Notes: generated by a model not told the origin, from the sequence alone. A stretch of 64,000 nt of DNA from Candidatus Omnitrophota bacterium (GCA_049517335.1 JBEKSD010000011.1:1-64000), one strand, 5' to 3'. Positions 32,025 through 59,043 are shown, counted from the stretch's first letter. Program-made: numbers and translations.

Positions 32025-33881
32025 ATGGATAATAAAGTTTCTTGGAAAAAAGTCACAACCGTTTATAGTTTTAAGGATTCAAAGACTGTCCGCGTTTTTG
32101 GTGTCGTCCGCGTATCGACAGATAAGCAGGCGCAGAAAATAGGCGAATCATTAGATCATCAGAAAGAAGTCCTTAAAAATTGGGTGAGGTCTAAATCAAG
32201 CCTGCACGCTCCCCAAGAATGGGGGCTTGTTGATATTTTTGTAGAAAATGAGGGTCCGGACGGCCAGAGAAAAGGACGGACTGCAACAAAGCGGGAAGGA
32301 AGAAGGGGATTAGCCAAAGCTCTTGAGCTTGCTAAATTAAAGCTTATTGACGTCGTTGTTGTAACAAAGCTGGATCGGATAGCTAGGAATGTAAGAGATT
32401 ACATAGACATATCAGCAGAATTCAATGAGAGCGGCGTGGCGCTTGTCTGTTTAGATCTTGACATTGATACTTCAACGCCTGATGGACAGATGATAATGCG
32501 TAATCACGCTAATCTTGCTCAATGGCAAGCGGAACGAATAGGGCAATATAGCATAGAAACCGTCCTAAGGCATCTTAACCAAGGGCGCCCGATAGGTCCA
32601 CCACCCATCGGTTACCGGATAAGCAAAGACTCTAATGGCAAGACTACTTATGAACCAGATCCTGCTTATAGGAAGCACGTTGAATTTATTGATCAACTAT
32701 ATTTGAGAGTGAAAAGTGTTGGAAAAGTTGTCGATATCTTACACCAAAAGGGATATAAATCTAAGCGTAACAAGACGTATTCAAAGCCTATGGTATCTCG
32801 TATTCTCCAGAATATCCGCTATATTGCAAAGCAAGAACATGATGGAAAAATTTATGCCGGGAATTGGGAACCATTAAGAAGTGAAGACGTTTATAAAACG
32901 ATTCAGGCTACTTTCAAGAGAAATAGGCTGAGTAATCACAGTCCAAATAGCTCAAATCATCACTACGTCTACCTTGCTAAAAGCCTACTTAAATGCAGCA
33001 GTTGCGGTTCAACCATGATCACAAGACCAGCTACCGGTAGAGGCGGGAAATATTATCCCTATTATATGTGTATGAAAGCATTTAAGACTAATGGCATTGA
33101 TTGCGAAGAAACCAATTATTTAGCATCAGAAGCTGTGGACGATGCGATTATTGAGATTTTACGGCATTTACATTTAAATCCTGATAATGTTGCTGAGATT
33201 ATAAAAAAAGCTAACCAGGCGACTGCATCAACGATAGGGATTTTGGAGGATGATTTGGATAGGGTCCAAGCAAGCTTAAAAGATGTCCGCACCAAAATTG
33301 CCAATTTAGTCGAGATACTCTCAGATAAGGGAATGGCAGGGATTGATGCAGTTAAGGAAAGGCTGGGAACCCTAAATCAAGACGAATCAGAGCTTGTCCT
33401 TGAAGAAAACAGACTGAAGTCAGAAGTTCAGGCAGAGAAGGTACAGGCTGGGACAGCTCATGAGTATATCAAGACATTACAGTTATTTGAAGATTACTAT
33501 GTGATGAATCAAAATAATAGGGAGCGTCTCCAGGCAATTCTTCCTAGAATAGTTAATTCAGTTATCTGTGAAATTAATGACAGGAAAAAGGGTATGGGCA
33601 AACTTAAGATTGGCTTATTCGGACGGCCTTTTAATAGAGGTCAGAACGCTGAGATATGGAATAAAACATTACAAAAAATAGCCGATGAGTGTTATAATAA
33701 TAAAGTTTTTGAAGAAGCTAATGGTAAGTTCGGAACAAAAGCTTATAAAGAGAGAAATCCTTCTTCAGGCGCAGGAGTTCTCGTTAATTCAGATAAACGG
33801 TATTATAATGTTTGTGGTTCGCAGAGGGTAACTTCTGTGACCCCAGTATCTCCTATCTCTATGTGGCACAATGAGTTATAA
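32025..33881 (+). CDS. Large serine recombinase (integrase)
   Basis: RVSTDKQ catalytic Ser, KLDRIARN, recombinase domain, zinc ribbon CSSCG...YYMC...C, coiled coil; 618 aa. Confidence 0.93.
   Translation: MDNKVSWKKVTTVYSFKDSKTVRVFGVVRVSTDKQAQKIGESLDHQKEVLKNWVRSKSSLHAPQEWGLVDIFVENEGPDGQRKGRTATKREGRRGLAKALELAKLKLIDVVVVTKLDRIARNVRDYIDISAEFNESGVALVCLDLDIDTSTPDGQMIMRNHANLAQWQAERIGQYSIETVLRHLNQGRPIGPPPIGYRISKDSNGKTTYEPDPAYRKHVEFIDQLYLRVKSVGKVVDILHQKGYKSKRNKTYSKPMVSRILQNIRYIAKQEHDGKIYAGNWEPLRSEDVYKTIQATFKRNRLSNHSPNSSNHHYVYLAKSLLKCSSCGSTMITRPATGRGGKYYPYYMCMKAFKTNGIDCEETNYLASEAVDDAIIEILRHLHLNPDNVAEIIKKANQATASTIGILEDDLDRVQASLKDVRTKIANLVEILSDKGMAGIDAVKERLGTLNQDESELVLEENRLKSEVQAEKVQAGTAHEYIKTLQLFEDYYVMNQNNRERLQAILPRIVNSVICEINDRKKGMGKLKIGLFGRPFNRGQNAEIWNKTLQKIADECYNNKVFEEANGKFGTKAYKERNPSSGAGVLVNSDKRYYNVCGSQRVTSVTPVSPISMWHNEL
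33816..33848 (+). repeat. Repeat site A (att-like), inside the LSR 3' end
   Basis: GGTTCGCAGAGG-GTAA-CTTCTGTGACC-CCAGTA; same ends and downstream context as sites B and C. Confidence 0.65.
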
Positions 33882-33887
33882 TAAGTA

Positions 33888-33945
33888 TCCGACGGAGAAA
33901 TCTGTCGGAGATTTTTTATGTAGCGATGTCCCTAGGAGTTAGGGC
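33888..33945 (+). terminator. Terminator followed by conserved GCGATGTCCCTAGGAGTTAGGG box
   Basis: TCCGACGGA-GAAA-TCTGTCGGA plus T-tract; box recurs at 43708 and 46499. Confidence 0.7.
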
Positions 33946-34154
33946 GTTATTTCCGTCGGAGAATTTCGCAATATTTTAAAACAAGATCTCCGTCGGAGGA
34001 GACAGGAATATTAAGTGCCAATTTTAAAAAAATAGCGCAATTCCTCTCGTAGTTTATGGGCGCTAGTTTATGGCTATTTCGCGATATTGCCGAATATTGG
34101 CACATCTAAATATGCCATAAACTAGGGAATAGGCCAGTTTTTCGAGGATAAACT

Positions 34155-34205
34155 AGAGAGGTTTCCTGCCGCGCAATATTTATGGGCGTCCTCACGGGAG
34201 TTACC
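34155..34205 (+). repeat. Variant att-like site (family 2)
   Basis: AGAGAGGTTTCC...ATATTTATGGGCGTCCTCACGGG; homolog at 45311-45360. Confidence 0.5.
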
Positions 34206-34229
34206 TTTAACTTGATAGAGTTAATAATC

Positions 34230-34257
34230 TTGACAAGCGTTTTTTTGATACTATAAT
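34230..34257 (+). promoter_or_regulatory. Sigma70 promoter
   Basis: TTGACA-16 bp-TATAAT. Confidence 0.8.
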
Positions 34258-34325
34258 TATTCATCATACTAATATTCAGATATAAAAATATATATGAAAA
34301 AATATAATTTTTTAGGAAGAACCCC

Positions 34326-34649
34326 ATGAATAAGGCGAACAGTTTAATTGAGCGGATCAAGGTTGGGCTGGTGATTGGGCTATTGGCGGCCTTGACCGGA
34401 TGTGCGGGGTACTGGACTGAAGGTTATTACGGAGACACGATGATGGTATCGGGTCCGGAACCTGATATGTTTCTTTTCGGAGGCGACTATTACGGGAGGG
34501 GCGATGCGCATAATTATAGCCATCGTGGATCTGAAAGTCGCAGGGTAGCGCATCCCAGTAGTAGACAAAATCATGGAGTAGTGCATTCCAGTACTGTACA
34601 AAGTCACGGAACGGCGCATCCTAGTGGCGAGCAAAGGGGAAAGCGATGA
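34326..34649 (+). CDS. Putative lipoprotein
   Basis: Lipobox LTGC; His/Ser/Arg-rich tail. Confidence 0.65.
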   Translation: MNKANSLIERIKVGLVIGLLAALTGCAGYWTEGYYGDTMMVSGPEPDMFLFGGDYYGRGDAHNYSHRGSESRRVAHPSSRQNHGVVHSSTVQSHGTAHPSGEQRGKR

Positions 34650-35674
34650 AGTACACATTGGATAAAAACAAACCCAATGAACTTATGAAATTTTTTAAAC
34701 AACTTACATGTTTTGTCAGTTTTTTAACAATCGCATTATTGGTAAGTGTCTGGAGTATTTTGTTAGTTGATCTTCATGCGGCAGAACCTAACCAAGCGCA
34801 ACAGAAACCAGTAGTTGTACAACGGTTGTTTACTTCTCCAGATGAGGCTATAAAAGCTTTACAGGCGGCTACCCAAGCTAAAGATAAAACGGCCCTAAAT
34901 GAAATTTTCGGCCCGGAGGTCCAAGAACTTTTAACCGGTGACGAAGTACAGGATACGAACAATTCGCAGAGGTTCGCTACCGCCATGGCGCAGGGCTGTA
35001 CGCCTGTGAAAGAGGGAGAGGACAAAATCACTCTTGAGGTTGGCAAGAATAACTGGCCTATGCCGATTCCACTGGTGAAAGCTAACGGGCAATGGCATTT
35101 CGATACTGCGGCAGGCAAAGAGGAGATCATCAGCCGTCATATCGGCAAGGACGAATGCCACGCCATCGGTGTTTGCCGGGCTTACGTGTTAGCGCAACGT
35201 CAGTATACAAGCATGAACCAGGGAGGAAAGAAGTACGCGCAAAAATTCAAGAGCACGCCTGGGGAAAAGGATGGTCTCTATTGGCCGTCTGCTGAGAACG
35301 AACCGACTAGCCCATTCGGGCCTTTGGTGGCAGAAGCCCATGCTGAAGGTTATGCCAAAAATAAGGTCATGCCGCATCCGTTTCATGGTTATTATTTCAG
35401 AATTTTGACCCGGCAAGGCAAGGCTGCGTCTGGCGGAAAAATGGATTACATGAGCCACGGCAACCTGACGAAAGGATTTGCGCTGGTGGCTTACCCGGCG
35501 CATTGGGACTACTCAGGCATCATGACATTTATCGTCAATCAGGACGGCAAAGTTTTTCAGCGAAATCTCGGCGAAAATACTTCTCAGGTTGCTAGGACAA
35601 TAAAGGAATACAATCCGGACAGCGAATGGGCGTTAGTGTCAGATGAGGGGGTATGCGCAGTATCCGAAAGATGA
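34646..35674 (+). CDS. DUF2950 family protein
   Basis: PFHGYYFRILTRQG...GFALVAYPA...SGIMTFIVNQDG. Confidence 0.85.
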   Translation: MKYTLDKNKPNELMKFFKQLTCFVSFLTIALLVSVWSILLVDLHAAEPNQAQQKPVVVQRLFTSPDEAIKALQAATQAKDKTALNEIFGPEVQELLTGDEVQDTNNSQRFATAMAQGCTPVKEGEDKITLEVGKNNWPMPIPLVKANGQWHFDTAAGKEEIISRHIGKDECHAIGVCRAYVLAQRQYTSMNQGGKKYAQKFKSTPGEKDGLYWPSAENEPTSPFGPLVAEAHAEGYAKNKVMPHPFHGYYFRILTRQGKAASGGKMDYMSHGNLTKGFALVAYPAHWDYSGIMTFIVNQDGKVFQRNLGENTSQVARTIKEYNPDSEWALVSDEGVCAVSER

Positions 35675-35860
35675 TGTTGCAGCCGCTTGTTAAAATCCAG
35701 CCAATACAAAAATCTAAACCTAATTTCTAATAATATCTTGTAATCACTTTGAGATTTTTCTTGTAGCAAAAACAATTCTCTGATATCTGATTGTCTTGAA
35801 TTGAAGAACGATCTAAGATACAATTATATTTAGAATTTGCACAGGAAGGTCATGACGGTT

Positions 35861-36597
35861 ATGACATCTCAAGGGAACAAAAAAATACATATTTTATTTT
35901 ACATTTTTTCTTTAATAGGATTTATTACTGCTATATTAGTTTATTCAGAAAAATCTCTGCCCCTACTTTATTTTCTTTGGAGACAGCCGTTTTTAATCTT
36001 CATCCGTATTTTCTGCATAGCCTTATTTTGTTTTTTTTTAAGCTCCTTAATCGCAAAGTCCTATCCTGGGGTTGGCTAAAATGGCTCGGGGGTATTATCT
36101 TTCTTCCAGTCCTGATTTTGCCGGCTATGCGGTGTTGTTTCAAGGTTCCCTATGTCTTCTGTCGCGTATGCCCAGATAAATGCCCTTGGGGATTATCGAG
36201 AACCTTATTTTTTACCTCCTTTGTTTCGCTTAACCTTTCAGGAAGATTCTGGTGCACAGCCGTATGCCCTGTAGGCACTTTTCAGGAATGCCAGGCCCAG
36301 CTTTCAAAAAAACACCTAAAACTTTTTTCATGGCTATACGGCCTGCCTTATCTTATTTTGTTCTTGGTCATAGGGATGTATTTTTTAACCTTTTTCGCAT
36401 CGCCTTGGGTGGGATTCTTTGAACATGGAGAATATGTTTGGGTTGCTGTAACAGCATCTATCGCTATTTTAATTATAGCAGCAGCGTTTTTTATCACAAG
36501 GTTTTGGTGCCGATATTTCTGTCCTGTAGGCACTATCGCAGAGTTAAGCTTTAGGCTTAAGCGTTTGTTAAAGATAGGTAAATCAAAAACAATCTAA
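35861..36597 (+). pseudogene. Membrane 4Fe-4S binding protein (NapH/FixG-like), frameshifted at a T9 run
   Basis: GRFWCTAVCPVG and RFWCRYFCPVG; the two overlapping frames join if 36031-36039 is T10. Confidence 0.65.
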
Positions 36598-36611
36598 AAA
36601 AGGAGAAAACT

Positions 36612-37268
36612 ATGGCTAGGAAACTATTTTTAACCGCGTGTTTGCTATTGATAAGCTTATTCATTTCTACTGAGGCAATCCATGCCCAAGACACAGCCTC
36701 CATCAAGTTATTAACTCCACAAATGCAAGGCGGTAAACCATTGATGCAGGCATTGAGGGATAGAAAAACTCAGCGCGCTTTTAGCCCTAAGGATTTGCCT
36801 TTACAGGTACTTTCAGACATGCTCTGGGCTGCAAACGGCATAAACCGCCCAGAATCAGGCCACCGTACCGCCCCTTCTGCCATGAATATGCAGGAAATTG
36901 ATATTTATGTAGCAAGAGCCGATGGTTTATATCTGTATGACGCTAAAGAGAATGTATTGAGGCAGATCCTGAAAGAAGACTTAAGGGCCTTAACCGGCAA
37001 ACAGGTATTCGTCAAAGACGCTCCCGTAAACCTTATCTTTGTGGCGGATTTTTTCAAGATGGGTAAAACCACAGGCAATACTACAGACTTCTATGCAGCT
37101 ACCGATACAGGCTTTGTCAGTGAGAATGTCTATCTATTTTGCGCATCAGAAGGCCTGGCTACAGTTGTGCGCGGCTTGGTGGATAAGCCGGCTTTGGCTA
37201 AAGCGATGAGATTAAGGCCTGATCAGAAGATAATTCTTACGCAAACAGTAGGGTATCCGAGAGATTAG
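36612..37268 (+). CDS. Nitroreductase / SagB-ThcOx family, exported
   Basis: LWAANGINRP, RTAPSA, ENVYLFCASEGL; signal peptide. Confidence 0.88.
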   Translation: MARKLFLTACLLLISLFISTEAIHAQDTASIKLLTPQMQGGKPLMQALRDRKTQRAFSPKDLPLQVLSDMLWAANGINRPESGHRTAPSAMNMQEIDIYVARADGLYLYDAKENVLRQILKEDLRALTGKQVFVKDAPVNLIFVADFFKMGKTTGNTTDFYAATDTGFVSENVYLFCASEGLATVVRGLVDKPALAKAMRLRPDQKIILTQTVGYPRD

Positions 37269-37286
37269 AAATCCGGATATTTCTTA

Positions 37287-37943
37287 ATGAATGAGAAAAT
37301 TAAGATTATAGAACTGGATTTTGTTAACGCCTTTTTGATTAAGGCAAAAGATGACTTTGTTTTGATTGATACGGGGATGCCTTATCACTGGAAAAGATTG
37401 GAGGCGAAATTAATAGATGCGGGTTGCCTTCCTCCTAAATTGAAACTCGTCATTATAACTCATGGAGATCGTGATCATATAGGTAATTGTGCGAAATTAC
37501 AGGAAAAATATAAAGCTAAGATAGCGATGCACGAAGCCGATGCCTTTATGGCAGAAGGTGGTGTGTTCCTGAAGCGTAAAGTAAGAACTTTAGCCGGCAG
37601 AATTCTTATTCTTCTTTCGAGATTGCGAAGACAAAAGATAAATTTACAGAAGTTTAAACCTGATATATTCCTGAAAGACGGACAGGGTTTAGAGGAGTAC
37701 GGATTCAATGCAAAAATCATTCATTCGCCAGGTCATACAAAAGGCTCTATCGGGATTTTAACCGAAGAAGGTGATTTGTTTGCCGGAGATACATTGGTTA
37801 ACTCAAAAAAGCCCGATATTGCAATATTTGTTGATAATTTTCAGGAGCTTAAGAATAGTATTGAAAAACTGAAGAAGTTGGAGATTAAAAAGGTTTATCC
37901 TGGTCACGGAAAAATATTTTTATTCTCTGATTTAAAGATATAA
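37287..37943 (+). CDS. MBL-fold metallo-hydrolase
   Basis: THGDRDHIG, PGHT, GD, PGHG. Confidence 0.9.
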   Translation: MNEKIKIIELDFVNAFLIKAKDDFVLIDTGMPYHWKRLEAKLIDAGCLPPKLKLVIITHGDRDHIGNCAKLQEKYKAKIAMHEADAFMAEGGVFLKRKVRTLAGRILILLSRLRRQKINLQKFKPDIFLKDGQGLEEYGFNAKIIHSPGHTKGSIGILTEEGDLFAGDTLVNSKKPDIAIFVDNFQELKNSIEKLKKLEIKKVYPGHGKIFLFSDLKI

Positions 37944-37977
37944 GTGAGATAGCGGGGAATACAGGAGGTATATTCTA

Positions 37978-38622
37978 ATGAAAATTATGGCATTTAATGG
38001 CAGCCCGAGAAAAGAATGGAATACGGCAACGCTACTTAAAAAAGCCCTTGAAGGCGCATCGTCACAAGGAGCCAAAACCGAACTTATTCATCTGTATGAT
38101 TTAAAGTATAAAGGATGTATTAGTTGTTTTGCCTGCAAAGAAAAAGGAGGTAAGAGCTATGGTAGGTGCGTGGTGAGAGACGATCTAAAGCCGATTTTTA
38201 AGAAAATTGAAACAGCCGATGCTTTCATATTTGGTTCGCCGATATACCTGGGGAATATTACCGGAGAGATGCAATCATTTCTGGAACGATTAGTATTTCC
38301 TTATCTAACTTATACCGATCCACCGGAGTCACTTTTCCCCAAAAATATCCCCGTGGGTTTTATTTATACCATGGGTCTTACCGAAGAGCTGATGAATGAA
38401 TTCGGTTATAACCAACGTTTCGCAGGTATAGACCGGTTTCTTGCTAGGATTTTCGGTTCAAGCGAGAAGCTTTTGTGTTTTGACACATATCAGTTTAAAG
38501 ATTATTCTAAAGTGGTTGCGCCAAGATTTAACCCTGAAGAAAAATTAAAAAGACGCCAAGAAATATTCCCTAAGGATTGTCAGAAAGCCTTTGAAATGGG
38601 TGCCAGATTTGCCAAGAAATAG
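37978..38622 (+). CDS. Flavodoxin family / iron-sulfur flavoprotein
   Basis: NGSPRKEWNT, GCISCFAC, GSPIY. Confidence 0.9.
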   Translation: MKIMAFNGSPRKEWNTATLLKKALEGASSQGAKTELIHLYDLKYKGCISCFACKEKGGKSYGRCVVRDDLKPIFKKIETADAFIFGSPIYLGNITGEMQSFLERLVFPYLTYTDPPESLFPKNIPVGFIYTMGLTEELMNEFGYNQRFAGIDRFLARIFGSSEKLLCFDTYQFKDYSKVVAPRFNPEEKLKRRQEIFPKDCQKAFEMGARFAKK

Positions 38623-38771
38623 AGAATTAAATGGAAAAAGGATTTGAAGCGATAAAGGAGCGGTACTTACACCGAACATTATACTACATGATATTTCATA
38701 CTATTCATACATTACATACTTAGCTAAAAAACTGGATAACACTAAACAATTTTTGTTAGAAGAACTCACAT

Positions 38772-39575: not shown

Positions 39576-39579
39576 AATT

Positions 39580-40356: not shown

Positions 40357-40385
40357 TGTTCTGATATGATTGAAAGGAGGGGATC

Positions 40386-40538: not shown

Positions 40539-40609
40539 AACTAGAGTCAGTCATAATTACTAAAGATTGATTCAGGTCTTACGACGACATCTAAAATAAG
40601 GAGGAATGC

Positions 40610-41110: not shown

Positions 41111-41254
41111 TTCGAATCTCTTCAGGGGGGGTGAGAGGAGTAGTATTTCGGTGAGTTCGGGCCCCGTCAGGTACCCCAATAATTATCTTCTCATTCAGAG
41201 AGGTGAGAGCTTAAAGCCCTGATTACTTTGATTAATCAGGGGGAGGTAACTGAA

Positions 41255-43525: not shown

Positions 43526-43570
43526 TTGTGGCCTAAATTAGAGGGTATTCATCTGAGTATATGGCGATTG

Positions 43571-43732
43571 TGGTATAATTGACCTGTGTAAATTAAGAGA
43601 GGTTTCCCCTCGGCTTATACGAGAGGGACCCCAGTAATATCGTTCTCCTCGCATAACGGGAGAGTTTAAGGCCTATGATCGGAATACCGGTTATAGGCCT
43701 TTTTATCTAGCGAGTTCCCTAGGAGTTAGGGC
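43571..43732 (+). repeat. Repeat site B: -10 box, hairpin, CCAGTA, terminator, conserved box
   Basis: TGGTATAAT; 30-nt hairpin 43601-43630; terminator 43668-43704; near-identical to site C. Confidence 0.85.
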
Positions 43733-43954
43733 ATCGCATTTATTAGCCGTATTTCGATTATATCCGTACCATAAGCTGTTTTAAAAGCCTCTCTGAATAT
43801 CGCTGTTTAATCGCCAAAATAGGCCAATTCCTCTCTTATATAATGGTCGCTATATAATGAAAATATCGGCAATATTCGAGGTATTTTAGAGCTTTAGGAG
43901 GCCATTATATACAGGGAGAGAGGGGTTTTCTATCGTTACGCGGTAGGGTTTTTA

Positions 43955-44108
43955 AGCAACTTCTGCCACTTTTCTTTTTGTTTTTCCCAATCTAACTCGC
44001 GGCAGATTTCGCGGAGTTTGTATTCGGGGATAAAGGGAATGTTTGAATTGTCTGAAAACAGAATATCTTCTTGGATGCTTGGTGCAAGCATGAGCAGATT
44101 CATGAGTA
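43955..44108 (-). pseudogene. Remnant of a small recombinase-associated gene
   Basis: Minus strand LMNLLMLAPSIQEDILF...KLREICRELDWEKQ resembles proteins encoded beside serine recombinases (recognition from memory). Confidence 0.55.
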
Positions 44109-44154
44109 GATAGATTTTAACCTGGTTTATATTAAGCCAGCCAGGATGAAATCA

Positions 44155-46098: not shown

Positions 46099-46341
46099 TA
46101 CAAGGAAGCAGCTTAATTAAACATATTAATTCAAGGAATAGTATCTGAACTAGCCAGCCAATTGAACAGCAGGGTAGTAAATTACCAATGTCCGGACAAA
46201 GATAGGCGGACAACCCTATCTCCTAATTACTCAAAGAGTTACGCGATTTTAAGCCAAAAATGACCGGACAAAACGGACGCATTTTCGAGCTTTTTTGTCC
46301 GTCACCAGGCCAGTAATGTGCCTCTCTAAAGCAGATAATTC

Positions 46342-46523
46342 TTGCTCTAATAGGGTAAGGGCTATATAATTGGTAGCTAGGAATTAAGAGAGGTTTCCCC
46401 TTGGCTCATACGAGAGGGACCCCAGTAATATCGTTCTCCTCATAGTATTGGATAGTTTAAGGCCTATGATCGCAGTAGCGGTTATAGGCCTTTTTATCTG
46501 GCGATGTCCCTAGGAGTTAGGGG
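46342..46523 (+). repeat. Repeat site C: promoter, hairpin, CCAGTA, terminator, conserved box
   Basis: TTGCTC-17-TATAAT; hairpin 46392-46421; terminator 46459-46495. Confidence 0.85.
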
Positions 46524-46596: not shown

Positions 46597-46794
46597 ATGG
46601 AATTGATACAGAAGTTAGATATATATCGCTTGGAAAACAGAATCTCCCAACAGTCGTTAGCCGCGAAGTTGGGAGTTTCTTTTGTTACGGTAAATAGATG
46701 GTTTAATAATAAGACCAAGCCGAATAAAATTCAAAGGTATCATATTAATAAATTTCTTAAGAACATTAAAGGAGGGGAGAAGCATGGAAAATAA
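46597..46794 (+). CDS. XRE-family HTH protein
   Basis: SQQSLAAKLGVSFVTVNRW. Confidence 0.85.
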   Translation: MELIQKLDIYRLENRISQQSLAAKLGVSFVTVNRWFNNKTKPNKIQRYHINKFLKNIKGGEKHGK

Positions 46795-47050
46795 TGGTTT
46801 AGGATATTGGGTGTGGTTTCTCCTTATCGGTGCGGTGATAGGGTGGTTGGCAGGGCTCATCGTCAGAGGCCGGGGGTTTGGGATTATCGGAGATATCGTA
46901 GTCGGGGTTGTAGGAGCTATGCTTGGTGGATGGATGGGGAGAGTAATAGGAATATATCCCGGCAGTTCAATTGGCGCGTTTTTAATGGCTCTTGTAGGTG
47001 CGGTGCTCTTAGTAGGCCTGACGCGCTTCATTAAACGAATAGCCGCATAA
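46784..47050 (+). CDS. GlsB/YeaQ/YmgE family membrane protein
   Basis: GWLAGLIVRGRGFGIIGDIVVGVVGA. Confidence 0.9.
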   Translation: MENNGLGYWVWFLLIGAVIGWLAGLIVRGRGFGIIGDIVVGVVGAMLGGWMGRVIGIYPGSSIGAFLMALVGAVLLVGLTRFIKRIAA

Positions 47051-51235: not shown

Positions 51236-52686
51236 TAAAAGATCTTGTAGCTAAAGTTAGAGATTTTGTCATAGTGAATTTGGAGGCAAAAGTTTACCCG
51301 GAAGAGATTGAGAAGTTCTATACAAAAATTGCTCCTATTAAAGAGATGTGCGTCTTTACTGTTTCCGGAATGGAAGGCGTAAAAGAATCGAGAGTGCTTT
51401 GGGCTATCATACAACCGGATCTTGATAATTTCAGGAAATTTGCCTCAGTGAATCTACATTTAGCCATTAAGGAGAGATTTGATAATGCCGAGCAATCGTT
51501 GCCTATTTATAAAAGGATTAAAGGTTTTACTATCACACTTGATGACCTGCCGCATGACCTGATTGGTAATTTAGATAGAAATGCGGTTAAAGAAATATAT
51601 GAACCTAGGGTAATCGCGGGAATAGAGGGTGCTCTTCCGGTTTTAGGAGAGTTAACGGCTGCGGACCATCTGTTGATAGAATCCGCAATCGGCATAAGAA
51701 TCTCGGAATGCTTAAAGGAACAGGGTGGCGTTAAAAGGCCGATAATACTGGAGGATTCTTTAGAGTTGGACTTGGGTATAGATTCATTAGGCAGGGTAGA
51801 GCTTGCTTTACGTCTTGAGTTAGCTTTTAGTATTGATATAAAAGACGAGGTAGTCTCCAGAGCTTTTACCGTAAAGGATCTTATTCTGGGAATAATGGAA
51901 GCCTTAAGAGGGGCCAAACCCATCTCCCCGGAGGATCAAGGGATATCTTTAGGGTTAAATTTCTGGAAAGAAAGTTTAAGGGTACTGCCTAAAGAAGAAC
52001 ATTTGGGGGCGCTTGAATTCAGTACCGGTTTTTTCGCCTGGCTGCTTCGATTTAGTATAACAGCAATAGATTTTTTGATTTTTAAATTGTTTTTCCATAT
52101 TAAGGCTGAAGGAGCAGAGAATGTACCTAAAGAAGGAGCTTATATTCTGTATCCCAACCACACCAGCGATCTTGATGGGCCGGCTATTAACGCTTGCTTG
52201 CCGCGTAGGCCGGTGTTTCAGCTTTTTTATTTTTTATTCATACCTTATTTCTTTAGGCCGTTTATAAAATCAACTTTTTTAAGAAATCTCGTTAAGATGG
52301 AAAGACTTATTCCTTTTGATTATTCAGCGCATTTTCTGGAGGCGTTACGCAGTGCCTATTTAGTCTTGCAGCGCGGTAAAGGCTTGTGTTTTTTCCCGGA
52401 AGGGTTGCGCAGTACTACTGGCGAAGTTGGGAAATTTAAAAAAGGTTTCGGTATCTTGGCTAAGGAAACGGGAGCAAAGCTTGTTCCTGTGGCTATAGAA
52501 GGGGCTTTTGAGGCATGGCCCAGTACGGTAAAGTATCCCAAATTCCGCGCGATTAGAGTCAGATTTGGCAAGCCGTTTCTCCCTGAAGATTTAGAAAAAG
52601 AAGGGTTGGCCATGGGCGCACAAGACTCTTATGAAGCAATATGCGTGGCGGCAAGAAAAGCGCTTATAGAATTGAAGGCTAAATAA
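51232..52686 (+). CDS. Truncated AMP-binding C-domain + ACP + PlsC acyltransferase fusion
   Basis: KVYPEEIE; LGIDSLGRVEL; NHTSDLD, FPEG. Confidence 0.8.
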   Translation: MIKDLVAKVRDFVIVNLEAKVYPEEIEKFYTKIAPIKEMCVFTVSGMEGVKESRVLWAIIQPDLDNFRKFASVNLHLAIKERFDNAEQSLPIYKRIKGFTITLDDLPHDLIGNLDRNAVKEIYEPRVIAGIEGALPVLGELTAADHLLIESAIGIRISECLKEQGGVKRPIILEDSLELDLGIDSLGRVELALRLELAFSIDIKDEVVSRAFTVKDLILGIMEALRGAKPISPEDQGISLGLNFWKESLRVLPKEEHLGALEFSTGFFAWLLRFSITAIDFLIFKLFFHIKAEGAENVPKEGAYILYPNHTSDLDGPAINACLPRRPVFQLFYFLFIPYFFRPFIKSTFLRNLVKMERLIPFDYSAHFLEALRSAYLVLQRGKGLCFFPEGLRSTTGEVGKFKKGFGILAKETGAKLVPVAIEGAFEAWPSTVKYPKFRAIRVRFGKPFLPEDLEKEGLAMGAQDSYEAICVAARKALIELKAK

Positions 52687-54047
52687 TGAATATTCTTATG
52701 ATGACCAATACTTATTTTCCGATGGTCGGAGGGTTAGAGCAATCGGTTTATTCTTTTAGCGAGGCATTTAGAAGCTTAGGGCATGAGGTTTTGATTGTTA
52801 CTCCGGCTTTTGGTGGCGCGCCGAAAGAGGAACCAGGCGTTATTCGAATTCCTGCTTTCCAAAAATTTGGAGGGACTGTTTTTTCGGTTAACTTTCCGAT
52901 TTCCGGACTCTTAAAGCGATACATGAAAGAATTCGTACCGGATATGGTGCACAGCCACGGCCCGTTTTTCATGGGAGATTTCGCGTTACGCCTTAGCCGG
53001 CAGCACGCCATACCGCTTGTATTTACTTATCACTGTATGTTTGAACAGTATGTGCATGATTGGCCAGTTCAAAATGAGGGAGTAAAAAGATTTATGGTCA
53101 AGCTTGCTGCTGGATATTCCAATTTAGTAGATCAGGTAATCGTGCCTAGCGAAAGCGTGCAGGATATTTTACTTAAAAGAGGTGTTAAGACTCCCATGGA
53201 GGTTATCCCGACAGGGATAGATGCCCAACGTTTTGCAAAAGGCGACGGAAAAGCTTTTCGAAAGCAGAACCAGATCCCTTCCGATGCTTTAGTGGTTGGC
53301 CATGCTGGTAGACTGTCTCCGGAAAAGAATTTGGGGTTCCTGACAAATTGTTTGGTTGAATTATTAAAAAGAGATCCTAGGGTTCATGCCCTGATCGTGG
53401 GCCTTGGCCCATCGCAAAATTTGATTAAGGACGCTTTTAGAACAGCTGGCCTTGAAAAAAGATTACATTTAACCGGGGTTTTACGTTATCAGGATTTAGT
53501 GGATGCTTATTTTGCCATGGATGTTTTCGCATTTGCTTCATTAAGCGAAACGCAAGGGATTGTTCTTATCGAAGCCATGGCAGCAGGGGTTCCGGTGGTG
53601 GCGTTGGATGCGCCGGGAGTACGGGAAGTTGTAGAAGATTATCACAACGGTCGGTTGCTCAGCCAGATGGATCAGCAAAGTTTTATTGATGCGCTTATCT
53701 GGGTTTTATCCCGGACTCCTGAAGAGTTACAAACCATAAAGCAGATCGTAAGAATGACGGTACAGAAATACCCGATTATGTCTGGTGCCAAACATATGTT
53801 AGAGATTTATGATAAAATTAGATCCAGGAGATCGGTTTCCTTAGGTAAAAAAAATAGTTCGCGGTATCTCATCCAGTGGCGCATGAAAGCGGAGTGGGAT
53901 ATTTGCAGCAATTATATTAAATCCGTAGTTACATCAGTATTCGAAGGAGGCTTTCAGAAAACAGAACCCATAAAAATTAAAGATACGACGGTAAAAAGTG
54001 GAGACCCTCTATCTAATAGTGCGACCAAGGGTTACTTAAAACAATGA
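52686..54047 (+). CDS. Glycosyltransferase family 4
   Basis: GRLSPEKN, SETQGIVLIEAMAAG. Confidence 0.92.
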   Translation: MNILMMTNTYFPMVGGLEQSVYSFSEAFRSLGHEVLIVTPAFGGAPKEEPGVIRIPAFQKFGGTVFSVNFPISGLLKRYMKEFVPDMVHSHGPFFMGDFALRLSRQHAIPLVFTYHCMFEQYVHDWPVQNEGVKRFMVKLAAGYSNLVDQVIVPSESVQDILLKRGVKTPMEVIPTGIDAQRFAKGDGKAFRKQNQIPSDALVVGHAGRLSPEKNLGFLTNCLVELLKRDPRVHALIVGLGPSQNLIKDAFRTAGLEKRLHLTGVLRYQDLVDAYFAMDVFAFASLSETQGIVLIEAMAAGVPVVALDAPGVREVVEDYHNGRLLSQMDQQSFIDALIWVLSRTPEELQTIKQIVRMTVQKYPIMSGAKHMLEIYDKIRSRRSVSLGKKNSSRYLIQWRMKAEWDICSNYIKSVVTSVFEGGFQKTEPIKIKDTTVKSGDPLSNSATKGYLKQ

Positions 54048-54808
54048 CTCCTAATTTTACTGGGGAGAATTGTTCCGTGATGACCGAGGATGGGAAACGT
54101 ATTGCCTTGATTCACGTTAAAGGAGGATTTTCCAAAGTTATTATTATCGCTCACGGTTTTTATAATAACAAGGATACATTTTTATTTCGAGGGATAACTG
54201 AGGCGTTTAGTAAAGAATACGATGTTATCGTGTTCGATTTTCGAGGCCATGGCAAGAGTAGTGACGTGTTTACCTGGACAGCGCGTGAACAAAAAGATTT
54301 GCGAGCGATCATTGTCTACGCCAAAGATAATCGCTATACCAAAATTGGCGTGATTGGTTTTTCGTTTGGCGCAGCGATCGCCATGATTGAAGCCAGCCAT
54401 CATCAGAATATTGATAGCCTAATCGCTGTTAGCGCCCCTGCAGATTTAAGAAGTATCAATTATCATTTTTGGGAAAAAGATATGTGGGAAGATTTAAAGC
54501 TTAATTTTGGGATCAAGGGGCAGGGTAAGGGGGTCAGGCTGGGTAGTCTTTCTTTAGAAAAGATTCGACCCATTGATATTGTTGATAAGATATCGCCCAC
54601 GCCAGTACTTTTTGTTCACGGTGAAAAAGACTGGCTGGTTAAGCCAAACCATAGCCAGCGTTTATTTGAAAAAGCAAAAAACCCTAAAGCTCTGACGATC
54701 ATTAAAGATGGTGGCCATGCGGAAAGGATGTTTGATGTTTTTCCTGATCAATTTATGAAAATATGCTTAGATAGATTTAGGAAAACTTTAGAAGAGGCGA
54801 ATCCATGA
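54044..54808 (+). CDS. Alpha/beta hydrolase
   Basis: HGF, DFRGHG, GFSFG, HGEKD, GGH. Confidence 0.9.
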   Translation: MTPNFTGENCSVMTEDGKRIALIHVKGGFSKVIIIAHGFYNNKDTFLFRGITEAFSKEYDVIVFDFRGHGKSSDVFTWTAREQKDLRAIIVYAKDNRYTKIGVIGFSFGAAIAMIEASHHQNIDSLIAVSAPADLRSINYHFWEKDMWEDLKLNFGIKGQGKGVRLGSLSLEKIRPIDIVDKISPTPVLFVHGEKDWLVKPNHSQRLFEKAKNPKALTIIKDGGHAERMFDVFPDQFMKICLDRFRKTLEEANP

Positions 54809-56085
54809 AAAATGAAAAGAAAAAAAAGAAATTACTTAAGGGAAAATGCCAGAATCAGGTAAAAACCCGCAGCGTCGCGGAAAGAATGATTATTAAGCAG
54901 CTTCACCAAGAAATTGAACAGCGTAAAAAAACAGAACAAGTAGCTCAGGATGCACGTAATTATGCCGAAAATATCATCAACACCGTACGTGAATCCTTAA
55001 TTGCTCTGGACCAAGATTTAAGAGTAGTCTCCGTAAGCCGTTCCTTTTATGAATTCTTTAAGGTAAAGCCTGAAGATACCGTGGGGCAGCTTATTTATGA
55101 CTTGGGCAATAAGCAGTGGAATATCCCCAAGCTGCGGGAATTGCTGGAAACCATCCTTCCCCAAAAAACTACCTTTGATAACTATGAGGTTGAACACGAT
55201 TTTGCTACCATCGGCAGGCGTATAATGCTTTTGAATGCCCGGCAAATTAAACGCGTGATGGGTAAGGAGCGGATCATTCTTCTGGCTATAGAGGATATTA
55301 CTGAGCGTAAGAAGATAGAAAACGGCTTGGAAAAAGCCCATGAAGAGTTGCAGGATTTGGCTGCTGAGTTAAAACGTAGCACTCGGGCAAAATCTGAATT
55401 CCTGGCCAATATGTCGCATGAGCTTAGGACCCCACTTAACTCCATCAATGGTTTTTCCGAGATATTATTTGATGGGACTTTCGGTTCGCTTAATGAGAAG
55501 CAGGAAAAATACGTGAATAATATTTTAACCAGCGGAAAGCATCTTCTTTCATTGATAAATCAGATACTTGATATGGCAAAAGTTGAATCCGGAAAGATGA
55601 AGCTGACATTATCCAGCTTACCCATGAAAAGCCTGTTAAATGAGATTGCGCTGCTGGTAGCGGATATGGTCAGCAAAAAGAAGATCGAAATGTTGCTTGA
55701 GATAGCGGAAGATCTGCCGAATATTGAAGCGGATGAACTTAAGGTAAAAGAGATACTTTATAACCTACTTTCCAACGCAGTTAAATTTACCCCTGAGGGT
55801 GGTAAGATCGGCATGCGGGCACAAAAGGTTGATTCTAAAATAGAAGTAGTGGTCTGGGATACGGGGGCTGGTATCGCATTTGGGAATATGGAGAAAATAT
55901 TTGAAGGTTTTTTTCGTGTTGATACTCCATATTCCCGGGTAACTGAAGGGACCGGGCTCGGTTTACCGATCTCGAAAAAACTGGTTGAGCTGCATGGCGG
56001 CAAGTTTTCTGTAGAATCAGAGGGACTAGGTAAAGGCACGCAAGTCAGGTTTACTTTACCGATTATAGCTAGAAAGGTGGTTTGA
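54805..56085 (+). CDS. PAS sensor histidine kinase
   Basis: PAS domain; MSHELRTPLN; NLLSNAVKFT; DTGAG; GTGLGL. Confidence 0.93.
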   Translation: MKNEKKKKKLLKGKCQNQVKTRSVAERMIIKQLHQEIEQRKKTEQVAQDARNYAENIINTVRESLIALDQDLRVVSVSRSFYEFFKVKPEDTVGQLIYDLGNKQWNIPKLRELLETILPQKTTFDNYEVEHDFATIGRRIMLLNARQIKRVMGKERIILLAIEDITERKKIENGLEKAHEELQDLAAELKRSTRAKSEFLANMSHELRTPLNSINGFSEILFDGTFGSLNEKQEKYVNNILTSGKHLLSLINQILDMAKVESGKMKLTLSSLPMKSLLNEIALLVADMVSKKKIEMLLEIAEDLPNIEADELKVKEILYNLLSNAVKFTPEGGKIGMRAQKVDSKIEVVVWDTGAGIAFGNMEKIFEGFFRVDTPYSRVTEGTGLGLPISKKLVELHGGKFSVESEGLGKGTQVRFTLPIIARKVV

Positions 56086-56086
56086 A

Positions 56087-56452
56087 ATGAAGAAGAGAGC
56101 GTTAGTTGTGGATGATAATAAAAGCAATCTTATGCTGGAAAAAGACCTTTTGGAGGTCGCTGGTTTTGAGGTACTTGAAGCTGAAAATGCTACCGATGGA
56201 ATCAGTATCGTCAGGAAAGAAAAACCGGATATCATCATTATGGATGTGCGGCTTCCGGATATGCGTGGTAGCGAAGCGGCGAGAATATTGCGTGAAGATA
56301 AAAAGATAGGCGATATTCCGATAGTTTTTGTTACGGCTTCGGTTATGGTCGGTGAAAGAGAAGAGATAAACGCGATAACTAATAGCGGATTTATAGGTAA
56401 GCCGATAGATACGCGTACCTTTGCTAAAACGATCAGCCAGTTTATTAAGTAA
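56087..56452 (+). CDS. Single-domain response regulator
   Basis: VDDN, IMDVRLP, GKP. Confidence 0.92.
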   Translation: MKKRALVVDDNKSNLMLEKDLLEVAGFEVLEAENATDGISIVRKEKPDIIIMDVRLPDMRGSEAARILREDKKIGDIPIVFVTASVMVGEREEINAITNSGFIGKPIDTRTFAKTISQFIK

Positions 56453-56494
56453 GTTTTTAATATATCAGAAAGTCAAATTTAAAAGAGGTACGGG

Positions 56495-57466
56495 ATGAAG
56501 GATAAATCAGTAATTTTAGTTGTTGATGATCAGCTTCAAAACATCGAACTTCTTGAAGCATATCTTGTTCCTCAGGGTTATGAAATTATCAAGGCGGCTA
56601 GCGGCGCAGAAGCCTTTGAAAAAATTTCTGGAACTCAAATTGATTTGATTCTCTTGGACGTAATGATGCCCAAGATGTCCGGCATAGAAGTGCTGGAGAA
56701 ATTACGTGCCGATGAAAAGACTAAGGCTATCCCAGTGGTGATGGTAACCGTGCTTAAGGAGACCGAAGATAAGGTAAAAGCCCTTGAGGCAGGTTGCGAT
56801 GATTTTATCTCTAAGCCCATTGATAAGGTCGAACTATTAGCCAGAGTTAAGTCCATAATCAAGATAAATTATTACCGCCGACAGTTAGAGGAAAAAGAAA
56901 AATTTAAGGCAGTAGTTGATAAGATAAGCGATGGCATTGCTATTTGTAGCCCGGATTATCTAATTAAGGATAGTAATACCGCGATTTTAAAGTACTTAAA
57001 TATTTCCGATACAACGAATGTTAATTTAGTCGAAATGCTATTTGCGAATTATTCTGTTTCCATAAATAAAGAAGCTCTTATGGATTTAACGGTTGCGCAT
57101 AAAACATTTGATATTGTACGCCAAAAATCAGAAGCGATAGAGGTATTGTATTTAGAGGTAGATTTAAATGTGATTAAGAATGCAGCCGGAGAGTTGTTAA
57201 GCATTGTTTTTATTTTACGCGATGTTACCGCAGCGCGCACTGAAGAATTTATAAAAAAGGATACGTTAACGCTTATTTCGCACAAAATGCGCGCACCGTT
57301 GGGAGTGATTAACGGAAAGATATCGTTACTTCAGGACGGATCATATGGAGCTCTTAATGAGGAGCAAAAAAAAGCAATTGATGCTGTCTCCAAGCAATCT
57401 GCTTTGCTTATATCAATGGTGGAGGAACTGCTTGGGTTTACCATCGCAGGTGGCCACTCCTCATGA
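56495..57466 (+). CDS. Receiver-PAS-HisKA protein lacking the ATPase domain (probably truncated)
   Basis: Receiver, PAS-like region, SHKMRAPL, then a stop. Confidence 0.75.
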   Translation: MKDKSVILVVDDQLQNIELLEAYLVPQGYEIIKAASGAEAFEKISGTQIDLILLDVMMPKMSGIEVLEKLRADEKTKAIPVVMVTVLKETEDKVKALEAGCDDFISKPIDKVELLARVKSIIKINYYRRQLEEKEKFKAVVDKISDGIAICSPDYLIKDSNTAILKYLNISDTTNVNLVEMLFANYSVSINKEALMDLTVAHKTFDIVRQKSEAIEVLYLEVDLNVIKNAAGELLSIVFILRDVTAARTEEFIKKDTLTLISHKMRAPLGVINGKISLLQDGSYGALNEEQKKAIDAVSKQSALLISMVEELLGFTIAGGHSS

Positions 57467-57737
57467 TACATATAAGTATAGAATCTCACGGTGATTAGAT
57501 GGACTTTATTTCCAACTTAAAGATGTTAATTTTCATTCCTCTGCTAACATGCGGATTGTTGATATGGATTATTGCTAGTTTTGTAAGGCTGGTTTTTGTA
57601 TATTGTTATTCGTGGTTGAAAGTGTTAAGCAGAAAACTTTTAGTAAATATTTGAACTAAGGTTAAGACAAGAAAGATGCCAAGGGAGATAGAGATGCACT
57701 TTATTTTGTTTAAGTTATTGCTACAAAGAAGGCAAGT

Positions 57738-58103
57738 ATGATTATGAAATATATTCGGGGATTTAGTATCTTAGTTTTAGGAATTACGGTTATTTTACTT
57801 AGTGGCTGCGCTACATGCAAAACACCATACCGCAGAGAACTATCTAATAATCCCAACTTAGCAGAGGCGAATGTAAGTTATAAAAAAGCCATAAATTGGC
57901 TGGATAAGGCAGAATGTTCAACAATCCCCGCCGAAGCGGAAAGGTTCTATACCACCGCGGAATCTTATATTTCAGACGCTATGTTTAAGTTAAAACAACT
58001 GGGACACGATAAAAATATAGATGTTTCTGAAGATGTCTATTATTGCGAAAAGATAAAGAGAGAAACAGATGTTCAAATAGGACAGGCTGAAAAAGCGAAG
58101 TAA
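57738..58103 (+). CDS. Putative lipoprotein
   Basis: Lipobox LSGC. Confidence 0.7.
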   Translation: MIMKYIRGFSILVLGITVILLSGCATCKTPYRRELSNNPNLAEANVSYKKAINWLDKAECSTIPAEAERFYTTAESYISDAMFKLKQLGHDKNIDVSEDVYYCEKIKRETDVQIGQAEKAK

Positions 58104-58263
58104 TCCAAAAATAAATCATTCTTTAATGGCAATGTCCGCCTCCCAAGGGCGGACATTCTGTATGCATTTATCTCTCAAATAGTTACATAATTCCAAGTCA
58201 AAAAATACCGGACAAATAAGACAAATACCACGAGCAAATAACCTCTCTAAATCCAGAATATTC

Positions 58264-58345
58264 TTGATATAGTGAGGTATTGCATATATAATTACCCCTG
58301 TAAATAGAGAGAGGTTTCTACTCGGCTCATAAGAGTGGGACCCCA
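58264..58345 (+). repeat. Repeat site D
   Basis: TTGATA-17-TATAAT; AGAGAGGTTTCTACTCGGCTCATAAGAGTGGGACCCCA. Confidence 0.8.
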
Positions 58346-58434
58346 ATTTTTTATAAAATTAATGGCTGAGAAATGAAAGAATATAAGGTCACTATTCGCA
58401 TTCCGCAATACAAGTACTAAATAATAAGGAAAGA

Positions 58435-58953
58435 ATGGAGCTGAAGCAGAAGATATTGCGCGAATTAAAAACGTACTGGGTAAATGTACTGTATATAACT
58501 TTATTTTTCAGTATTTTCACCGATTACCGCAGATTAATGCTGGCTCATTATCAGATTACCTATAAGAATTATGGGATCAGTTTGATTAAGGGGTTGGTGT
58601 TAGCCAAGGTGATCCTGGTGGCAGAGCATTTGCACCTCGGAAGGGGATTTGAAAATAAAGCTTTAGTCGTCCCGACCCTGTACAAATCGTTTCTGTTTAC
58701 TATTTGTGTTGCGATTTTAAGCGTAATAGAGGCTATGGTCCGCAATTTTTTAAAAGCAGAAAATTTTACCGGAGTGCCGGATATGTTTATAAGATGTTTC
58801 TCGTATGAATGGTTTGCCGGCATGCTGGTGGTATTCGCTGCTTTTATCCCGTTTTTTGCGATCAGGGAATTAGGAAGAGTGTTGGGAAGGGGAAAAATCA
58901 GTGAGCTATTTTTCCGTAAGGGGACAGACACCAAAACAAACCTTCCCGAGTAG
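58435..58953 (+). CDS. Membrane protein (4 TM), sole gene between sites D and E
   Basis: Hydrophobic helices; LVLAKVIL, FIPFFAIRELGRVLG. Confidence 0.75.
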   Translation: MELKQKILRELKTYWVNVLYITLFFSIFTDYRRLMLAHYQITYKNYGISLIKGLVLAKVILVAEHLHLGRGFENKALVVPTLYKSFLFTICVAILSVIEAMVRNFLKAENFTGVPDMFIRCFSYEWFAGMLVVFAAFIPFFAIRELGRVLGRGKISELFFRKGTDTKTNLPE

Positions 58954-58964
58954 AGTAAGAGCTA

Positions 58965-59043
58965 TATAATTGAATTGCTAGGCGTAAATAGCGAGAGGTT
59001 TTCCCTCAGCTCATGCAAGAGGGACCCCAGTAAATTCTCTCTC
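58965..59043 (+). repeat. Repeat site E
   Basis: TATAAT; GAGAGGTTTTCCCTCAGCTCATGCAAGAGGGACCCCAGTAAATTCTCTCTC. Confidence 0.8.

Follow-up and report, generated by a model that had tools for sequence, protein, structure and literature searches.

The 64-kb stretch of DNA considered here (the window) is the first 64 kb of the 73.9-kb contig C11 of a metagenome-assembled genome (MAG) from the Omnitrophota, the assembly of which amounts to 1.45 Mb in 31 contigs. The window carries the gene for a large serine recombinase (LSR), denoted LSR-A, and to the right of this gene is an array of unrelated gene sets that are separated by a repeated site. The most complete form of the site is composed of a module (promoter-like sequence and hairpin 1, ending in ACCCCA) and a P' unit (hairpin 2, a terminator, and a conserved box). 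An earlier reading made from the sequence alone (the sequence-only reading) took the locus for an integron served by LSR-A. We propose that the locus is probably built of two layers: an LSR-A element inserted at a tRNA-His gene and accreted units of a second recombinase family, LSR2, many of which are without an integrase. The contigs, genomes, and loci that were compared are labeled C, G, and L, respectively, and G000 is the source MAG. The evidence throughout is from assembled contigs, and the contigs from four sequencing runs were mapped for joints. The sequence is present in metagenomes from peat. The principal features are as follows.

1-33846, + strand: right-hand 33.8 kb of the putative LSR-A element, collinear with G101; the right bound is the core at 33840-33846.
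32025-33881, + strand: LSR-A, a large serine recombinase of 618 aa; Pfam Resolvase, Recombinase, and Zn_ribbon_recom.
33816-33846, + strand: site A, the predicted attR; P arm of the LSR-A attP (GGTTCGCAGAGGGTAAC...) and core ACCCCA.
33847-34164, + strand: P' unit and approximately 220 nt of an LSR2-type element end from which the integrase gene is gone; box at 33929-33944, nhmmer match at 33850-33947.
43552-43734, + strand: site B, a module (promoter-like -10, hairpin 1, ACCCCA) joined to a P' unit; box at 43716-43731.
43950-44140, - strand: remnant of an LSR2 C-terminus that reads toward the site B box; tblastx matches to LSR2 of C7, C18, L172, and L139.
46184-46522, + strand: site C, an upstream conserved block, a module, and a P' unit with its box at 46507-46522.
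58210-58345, + strand: site D, a module followed by an A/T-rich flank and a 172-aa open reading frame (ORF, 58435-58953); nhmmer E 2e-31.
58954-59029, + strand: site E, a partial module without the -35 or the upstream block; nhmmer E 1e-12.

The five sites A to E of the sequence-only reading were confirmed, at the positions first reported, by reading of the sequence. Site A (33816) is within the 3' end of the ORF at 32025-33881 (GGTTCGCAGAGGGTAACTTCTGTGACCCCAGTA), and the span from GGT to ACC is 30 nt in each of B (43601), C (46392), D (58313), and E (58997). The left flank TATAAT...GAGAGGTTT is common to B-E. The right flank common to A-C consists of a terminator and then the box TCCCTAGGAGTTAGGG, 79-80 nt past ACC. 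Three copies of the box are found in the window, relative to 0.01 expected from shuffled sequences, and chance is therefore excluded for the box. The core pattern AGGTT-N17-27-GACCCCA matched six sites in the whole assembly, all on the + strand of C11, in addition to two hits that look like chance. Two of the six are past the window (C11 66808 and 73640), and looser searches gave further C11 copies at 67797 and 68525. In total, there are nine cores on C11, with A included, all on the + strand and four of them outside the window. The nhmmer matches divide site B into a module at 43552-43633 and a P' unit at 43635-43734, and site C into a module at 46308-46424 and a P' unit at 46426-46522; site C also has blastn matches to many loci, and its upstream block contains GGACAA repeats, a small hairpin, and CCAGTAAT.

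The module is approximately 130 nt in length and contains a CCTCTCTAAA block, -35/-10-like hexamers, and the hairpin GGT-T-stem-loop-stem-ACC, followed by CCA. The P' unit follows the module in B, C, and the further copy G; it is reduced to its first bases in E and H, and the sequence diverges directly past ACCCCA in D, F, and the 67797 copy. The distance between modules is mostly 0.65-1.7 kb, which corresponds to single genes, and in many loci the next ORF starts 20-110 nt after the module. Hairpin 1 can form in 85% of the cells compared. Its covariation is weak (12 cells changed on both sides, a value reached by 24 of 500 shuffles), and an RNA function of this hairpin is thus indistinguishable from a DNA function. 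The hairpin is conserved in sequence: 18 of its 37 positions are fixed by the search pattern, and the others average high identity. A riboswitch or small RNA (sRNA) at hairpin 1 was considered and set aside for the weak covariation. No match to the module or P' motif was returned from the window by Rfam 15 at the gathering threshold, and a search of site B with E values up to 10 gave chance-level matches only.

The pattern GAGAGGTTT-N19-GGGACCCCA matched 86 stretches in the one-genome-per-species GTDB contigs. Most of these are labeled Omnitrophota, the remainder are mostly of the Planctomycetes type, and several records have matches in more than one stretch. At the family level (60 other genomes, up to 2 mismatches), the module is present in 17, and in most of the genomes with more than one match the copies are clustered on one strand of one contig. 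A profile made from 57 copies located 8 modules on C11 and 7 diverged copies on C7, C10, C18, C21, and C28 (three on the last), and the copy on C10 is directly upstream of glmS. The repeat is therefore not confined to the array locus. A scattering of the repeat away from LSR genes, which the sequence-only reading had named as evidence against itself, was found in part, in that the diverged copies are dispersed in the genome. The scan of viral contigs gave no matches to the module. Because of this distribution across GTDB, the family genomes, and the other contigs, the module is considered to be phylum-wide, patchy, and clustered, and it is not tied to LSR-A.

LSR-A has a catalytic domain at residues 25-183 (PF00239, E 1.7e-24), followed by PF07508 at 222-300 and PF13408 at 319-379. 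It contains the motif RVSTDKQ, within which we take the serine nucleophile to lie, and its matches in the PDB are to the catalytic domains of the gamma-delta and Tn3 resolvases and of invertases. From these catalytic, recombinase, and zinc-ribbon domains, and from the att sites described below, the sequence assigns LSR-A to the large serine recombinases. Relatives with E <= 1e-40 were found in 21 of 401 genomes of the phylum, the source included, and a scan of metagenomes supplied 60 further loci. In over 20 loci, the LSR gene belongs to a clade that is ~60% identical and is oriented toward the 3' end of a convergent tRNA-His gene, and the close clade comprises 34 loci at >=65% identity. In more than 10 orthologue loci of the close clade, the homology to the window stops at ACCCCA (33843-33851), past which the flanks are different. 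The alignments of the orthologues end at aa 593-613, and the last 12 codons of LSR-A are past the crossover core.

The same flanks that follow the ends of these LSR genes also follow modules elsewhere. The flank at L143 is shared with that behind a module at L042, and those at L145 and L147 with L035 and L030. The flanks at L135, L142, and L163 are shared with site A, L040, and L028, and that at L152 with sites B and C. Since the orthologue homology ends at ACCCCA and the same flanks follow modules, ACCCCA is a recombination breakpoint, and the proposal that the sites are recombination junctions with a break in or beside these bases is upheld. The cargo behind orthologous LSRs was also correctly predicted to be variable; it differs almost completely, and almost none of the downstream sequence is shared among 19 loci.

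Large serine recombinases catalyze unidirectional recombination between attP and attB. The attP is ~50 bp, with inverted half-sites around a short core, and attL and attR are hybrids of attP and attB. On C18 of the source genome, a tRNA-His gene ends in ...CAGCCACCCCA. The sequence that comes next, AATGTTACCCTCATGCGAACC, repeats the LSR arm GGTTCGCAGAGGGTAAC almost perfectly in inverted orientation. Past this junction are a weakly ParB-like gene and then a TraG_N-like membrane protein. The junction (tRNA-His...CCACCCCA joined to AATGTTACCCTCATGCGAACC, with the ParB-like gene next) has the form of an attL. It was also found in G101 on C8, where the following gene is 96% identical in amino acid sequence, and in G396 on C16 at the contig end, and thus in three of the five genomes that hold this LSR type. 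An intact attP, GGTTCGCAGGAGG...ACCCCA...CCCTCATGCGAACC, is present in the metagenome contig L155, in which the LSR arm, ACCCCA, and the inverted arm are followed by the same first gene as at attL. The fourth configuration, an attB-type state with the P' unit directly after tRNA-His, is found in L019, L041, and L062.

In the LSR-A attP, the core ACCCCA is thus flanked by two GGTTCGCA-GAGGGTAAC half-sites in inverted orientation, one of which is the 3' end of the LSR-A gene itself. For this reason, site A has the configuration of the attR, the junction on C18 that of the attL, and L155 that of the attP, with a crossover in or next to ACCCCA; the exact dinucleotide at which the strands are exchanged would be found there, and the integration was presumably catalyzed by LSR-A. 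The T-loop of the tRNA contains GGTTCGA, to which the half-site GGTTCG is similar both in sequence and in its distance from the core; this resemblance explains the GGT...ACC-CCA signature of the repeated sites. An attL upstream of the LSR gene was considered as well; no module is found there in the window or in any of the 15 loci with at least 9 kb of upstream sequence, and the attL was at tRNA-His on C18. A regular-expression search for a junction of a module with a P' unit like that at site A gave none.

The window from 71 to 33806 is collinear (tblastx) with 30 kb upstream of LSR-A in G101, which belongs to a different genus. The long blocks of collinearity are about 50-96% identical in amino acid sequence and include response regulators and two giant ORFs. 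The LSR-A element would be at least 36 kb in the source genome (33.8 kb on C11 and 2.2 kb on C18) and at least ~42 kb in G101, and it may be conjugative. C1 and C8 of G101 end in the same ~100-nt sequence, inverted, and a similar sequence is at the end of C18 of G000; these contig ends point to an inverted repeat or an invertible segment ~2.2 kb inside the element. In one metagenome contig (L170/L171), two LSR genes of the tRNA-His clade are ~15 kb apart, and the distal gene is followed by ...TGGGGTCCC rather than a tRNA, an arrangement that suggests tandem elements of this clade.

The second recombinase family accounts for the right flank. The LSR2 genes encode proteins of 529-535 aa that are 29% identical to LSR-A, and a P' unit plus about 250 nt lies downstream of these genes and convergent with them. 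The P' unit abuts the CCA of tRNA-Glu on C7 and the CCA of tmRNA on C18. The same arrangement is found in L002 (tRNA-Gln), L004, L009, L062 (tRNA-His), L139, and L172, and the order at L062 is tRNA-His, P' unit, LSR2, cargo, and a module joined to the P' unit of the next element. A variant of the module is found at the opposite end of each of these two islands, on the strand of the RNA gene, and its end copies the target in question: ...GGGACA for tRNA-Glu on C7 and ...CCACCA for tmRNA on C18. The shared right flank of hairpin 2, terminator, and box is, on these sequence associations, the end of LSR2-family elements, and LSR2 would be the catalyst of their integration. Within the window, 33847-34164 has its match on C7 and C18, past the ends of the LSR2 genes, and is homologous to L071 (two copies), L040, L019, and L163. 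The reverse complement of 43950-44140 contains the conserved C-terminal motif and the ~250-nt spacer before the box. The remnants of LSR2-type element ends in the window are at 33948-34164 and 43735-44140. The statement of the sequence-only reading that no cassette has its own integrase is valid for intact genes and fails for the LSR2 C-terminal remnant.

Two other assignments for parts of this flank were rejected. The P' unit is not a native tRNA trailer, because it is carried by just 3 of the 41 tRNA/tmRNA genes of the source genome. The box was considered as the LSR2 crossover, and neither the C7 nor the C18 island has another copy of it at the far end. A P' unit also follows the tRNA-Met gene on C1 (7532-7608), where there is no LSR close by. 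A putative LSR2 island of 19.7 kb, at 3536-23337 on C7 of G000, is located at tRNA-Glu and past a gyrA-like gene. Judged by first residues only, it appears to encode defence-like cargo that includes a DNA methylase and SbcCD-like and ParB-like genes. An orthologue of the 323-aa gene that flanks the island was found in none of 60 family genomes, and hence there is no empty-site comparison for this island. A third LSR paralogue, 25% identical to LSR2, is at 11396-12448 on C17 of G000 and is convergent on tRNA-Asn (12845-12920).

The combination of a module and a P' unit could also be a gene for a small RNA or an attenuator (~115 nt, three hairpins) that has been duplicated for its RNA function. 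The combination has a promoter and two hairpins, its terminator stem shows compensatory changes between B/C and G, and at least 37 module-P' junctions are present in the loci examined. However, the P' part also follows tRNA-Glu, tRNA-Met, tRNA-Gln, tRNA-His, tmRNA, and the ends of LSR-A genes, and the two halves therefore assort independently. With no Rfam match in addition, we regard this explanation as very improbable.

A native role for the module alone is somewhat easier to defend. In this case, the modules would be promoter/5'-leader elements of an Omnitrophota stress or accessory regulon that are used as att sites by LSR elements. The hexamers and the short distances to ORF starts noted above are as expected, a diverged copy precedes glmS on C10, modules precede csp-like genes in L148, and most of the units encode no mobile-element protein. 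It is more difficult to reconcile a native promoter with the patchy occurrence in the family or with the hairpin-core 37-mers, which are identical or nearly so across MAGs with different phylum-level labels. The copies on C7 and C10 are ~90% identical (by eye) over ~120 nt upstream of unrelated genes, the copies are clustered in one orientation, no Rfam family was found, and within an LSR2 island the end of the module agrees with that of the tRNA or tmRNA on the opposite side. We consider a native regulatory element improbable.

The array to the right of site A encodes cargo that is unrelated from unit to unit. It includes redox enzymes, an ABC transporter, and methyltransferases; a lipid and glycosyl-transfer set with two-component proteins; radical-SAM genes; and small membrane proteins. 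No mobile-element proteins are encoded in most of the units. P' remnants are found in the array at A, B, C, E, H, and G. The joints 43651/46441 to 46880 that were seen in the contig mapping correspond to site H, a paralogous site in the same genome. An 88-aa Transgly_assoc (GlsB/YmgE-like) gene is at 46784-47050 (+), and the 5' part of its paralogue at site H (C11 68580-68760) is replaced by a module with the join 17 nt past ACCCCA, which explains these joints. A conserved block of ~100 nt is found upstream of some modules (46184-46320; C11 66594-66715). It contains GGACAA repeats, an ACGGAC/GTCCGT hairpin, and CCAGTAAT, which repeats the sequence after the core, and is possibly a set of accessory protein-binding sites. 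In the first unit, the intergenic segment 40373-40517 is 75-85% conserved in two unrelated loci, L063 and L040, and may be another junction or a regulatory piece. A conserved region past the window (C11 73077-73494), which contains a small CxxC ORF of ~55 aa, is 76-91% identical in L065, L066, L059, and L030; a shorter segment matches L148 at 74%, and there is no Pfam family. This region was considered as a fixed cassette unit and rejected, for it has no constant position relative to the modules.

These observations are probably best described by two layers. In the first, a large LSR-A element would have been inserted at the 3' end of tRNA-His, with 1-33846 of the window as its right part. In the second, the sequence to the right of site A would be the region that was formerly directly downstream of tRNA-His, an island built of units that begin with a P' unit (hairpin 2, terminator, box), continue with cargo, and end with a module (promoter and hairpin 1 ending in ACC-CCA). 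Intact units have an LSR2 integrase beside the P' unit and are seated at tRNA-His, tRNA-Glu, tRNA-Gln, or tmRNA. Since the module mimics the GGTT...ACCCCA end of tRNA-His, each integration would restore a usable landing site, and the units would stack head to tail. Each would also leave an outward promoter, predicted from the hexamers, that reads into the next sequence. Most of the units in this array would have lost the integrase, with the one remnant at 43950-44140.

Several observations weigh against this description. The attL and attR are on different contigs in all three genomes, and the assemblies of G000 and G101 both break ~2.2 kb from tRNA-His, at the inverted repeat; the continuity of the element, and with it the size, is consequently deduced. 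The collinearity with G101 could in part reflect shared ancestry and not a shared mobile element. An intact attP was found in 1 of the 28 loci that reach the 3' end of the LSR gene. Hairpin 1 shows little covariation, and only about half of the orthologues have a strong hairpin in the LSR 3' end. There is no intact LSR2 gene in this array. The mapping of the contigs from the four sequencing runs gave no excision or circle joint, and those joints that go back have short sides in repeats. In addition, many of the units are only 0.65-1.7 kb, which is more suited to cassettes than to the decay of large elements.

The small size of the units is one argument for the integron-like platform of the sequence-only reading, in which LSR-A, with the 80-aa ORF upstream of it, would insert integrase-less circles at the core that its own gene carries in the 3' end, with the most recent unit adjoining the LSR gene and the earlier ones displaced downstream. 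A further argument is found at L152. L152 and L148 have the same LSR and upstream DNA that is ~90% identical. Relative to L148, L141, and L144, L152 has a 4.0-kb unit at the precise point where, in the other three, the LSR core meets the flank behind it. This unit contains a P' unit, a sigma-like gene, a porin-like gene, amt, P-II, and a module, and it has no recombinase gene. Co-oriented modules follow the LSR gene in 3 of the 11 loci with at least 2.9 kb downstream and precede it in none of 15. In L148, five cores are found within 4.6 kb behind LSR-A, with single small genes between them, two of which are csp-like by translation. Finally, 8 of 28 contigs end within 250 nt past the core.

However, an LSR-A element that had inserted between tRNA-His and an independently variable island would be expected to give all of the same data. 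The insertion at a core of the site A type, as had been predicted, is therefore borne out by the unit in L152 only as far as its position; the unit could be a capture at the LSR-proximal core or, equally, island variation that predates the LSR-A insertion. Similar integrase-less units of 1.5 kb are located at tRNA-His without LSR-A in L019 and L041. Arrays are also found in genomes without an LSR-A orthologue (G439, G010, G012, G441, and G002), whereas G101 and G396 have LSR-A and gave no match to the module pattern, although the profile does find one diverged module 6.3 kb downstream of the LSR gene in G396 (L120). The supposed link of the array to this LSR does not survive these comparisons. 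The P' unit is physically tied to LSR2 genes, and LSR-A has an attL, attR, attP, and attB of its own, belonging to an element of at least 36 kb, which is at odds with a dedicated integron integrase that has an attI. To our knowledge, no LSR recombines a hybrid attR with an attP in the absence of a directionality factor. We therefore consider the integron-like platform to be unlikely.

The two-layer description is preferred, and the short units may still have a separate significance within it. They could represent a true cassette system of the Omnitrophota, in which integrase-less circles are captured in trans by LSR2 and possibly by LSR-A, with tRNA-His or its mimics as the anchor. Every unit would supply a promoter and, once inserted, restore the landing site. 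Such a system would be the counterpart of the integron among serine recombinases. We advance this joint proposal tentatively and hold it to be less probable than the simple loss of integrases from accreted units.

The LSR-A gene is preceded by two small genes of interest.

31214-31576, + strand: replication-protein-O-like helix-turn-helix gene, 120 aa; Pfam Phage_rep_O 4.8e-18, PHROGs replication initiation O-like.
31741-31983, + strand: candidate accessory/directionality ORF, 80 aa, immediately upstream of LSR-A.

A homologue of the Phage_rep_O-like gene is upstream of the LSR gene in many of the close loci. The 80-aa ORF has a homologue (tblastn) in 55 of the 60 metagenome LSR loci, and the other five have no upstream sequence. 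It matches no Pfam or PHROGs family and is a candidate for an accessory or directionality factor. The remaining cargo of the element includes response regulators, the two giant ORFs, and genes with no assigned function. The giant ORFs are at 3814-11040 (+), encoding 2408 aa with TPR repeats, and at 11037-24248 (+), encoding 4403 aa with an M28/M20 peptidase-like region and HEAT repeats; both are collinear with G101 at up to ~94% amino acid identity. A c-di-GMP-I riboswitch at 30648-30740 (-) (75 bits, E 6.6e-13) is directly upstream of a response-regulator gene at 29990-30655 (-), and this block is kept in several LSR-A loci (L138, L140, L145, and L172).

Integrons are composed of the tyrosine recombinase IntI, an attI site, attC cassettes, and the promoter Pc that drives promoterless cassettes. 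The locus described here is similar to an integron in its co-oriented array of unrelated, mostly integrase-less units, its repeated hairpin-forming site, and the recombinase gene at one end. The content of the array varies between relatives (nine cores on C11, 19 loci, and L152), and the one occupied/empty pair, at L152, has its insertion at the recombinase-proximal site. In contrast to an integron, the sole recombinase is a serine recombinase. The site is at the 3' end of its gene and co-directional with it rather than at the 5' side with a Pc, and the units have their own -35/-10-like promoter. Hairpin 1 is conserved in sequence with weak covariation, and not in structure with variable sequence as in attC. 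Autonomous integrative elements are the source of the sites, through their att arms; the LSR, as an element integrase, has an attL, attR, and attP of its own; and the arrays also occur without LSR-A.

Site-specific accretion in the ICE, IME, and CIME of streptococci generates tandem arrays with att repeats and integrase-less derivatives. The tandem arrays bounded by att repeats, with non-autonomous derivatives that are possibly mobilized in trans by a related integrase, are comparable. The phylum and the target are different, the att arm here is a mimic of a tRNA end with a promoter, and the small units show no conjugation module. The serine integrase of the mycobacteriophage phiRv1 has its attB in the multi-copy repeat REP13E12 and is similar in that a large serine integrase uses an attB in a repeated element of which there are several per genome. 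In the present locus, a tRNA gene is the primary target, and the repeats were seemingly brought by the elements themselves.

The closest parallel may be the tycheposons of Prochlorococcus, the site-specific integrases of which target tRNA genes. Successive integrations at one site push older elements into an island that contains scattered integrase remnants and partial tRNA repeats, and a minority (27 of 937) use a large serine recombinase (bioRxiv 10.1101/2020.12.28.424599). The tRNA target, the successive integration, the repeats of the target end, and the integrase remnants in the island are in common with the tycheposons as presented there. Elements with an integrase are located at the 3' ends of tRNA or tmRNA genes for LSR2 (tRNA-Glu, tmRNA, tRNA-His, and tRNA-Gln) and for the LSR-A clade (tRNA-His). 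The modules end in ACCCCA, and remnants of LSR2 and of the P' unit are found. The differences are that both of the integrase families here are serine recombinases, that the repeat is a promoter and a hairpin mimicking the end of tRNA-His rather than a plain partial tRNA, that many of the units are single genes, and that the 3' end of the integrase gene is one att arm.

A search of the literature on Omnitrophota serine recombinases, LSR cassettes, and integron-like arrays, with supplements outside the search, returned no description of such a system, which we would define as serine-recombinase elements at tRNA-His with a promoter-bearing mimic of the target and an att arm within the integrase gene. 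The att sites would imitate the tRNA-His end from the T-loop to CCA, and one att arm would be the 3' end of the recombinase gene. Since the att sites are defined to a few bases, the reactions of LSR-A and LSR2 are directly testable in E. coli, and new serine integrases with natural multi-site landing pads could be of interest.

The Omnitrophota are very small, uncultured bacteria for which few mobile elements have been described. If the two-layer description is correct, two giant genes (2408 and 4403 aa) reside on a putatively mobile element that is common to different genera, and the promoter-equipped target decoy of the LSR2 family would explain the stacking of units into integron-like arrays. 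The variable gene islands of the Omnitrophota would then be built by serine, and not tyrosine, recombinases.

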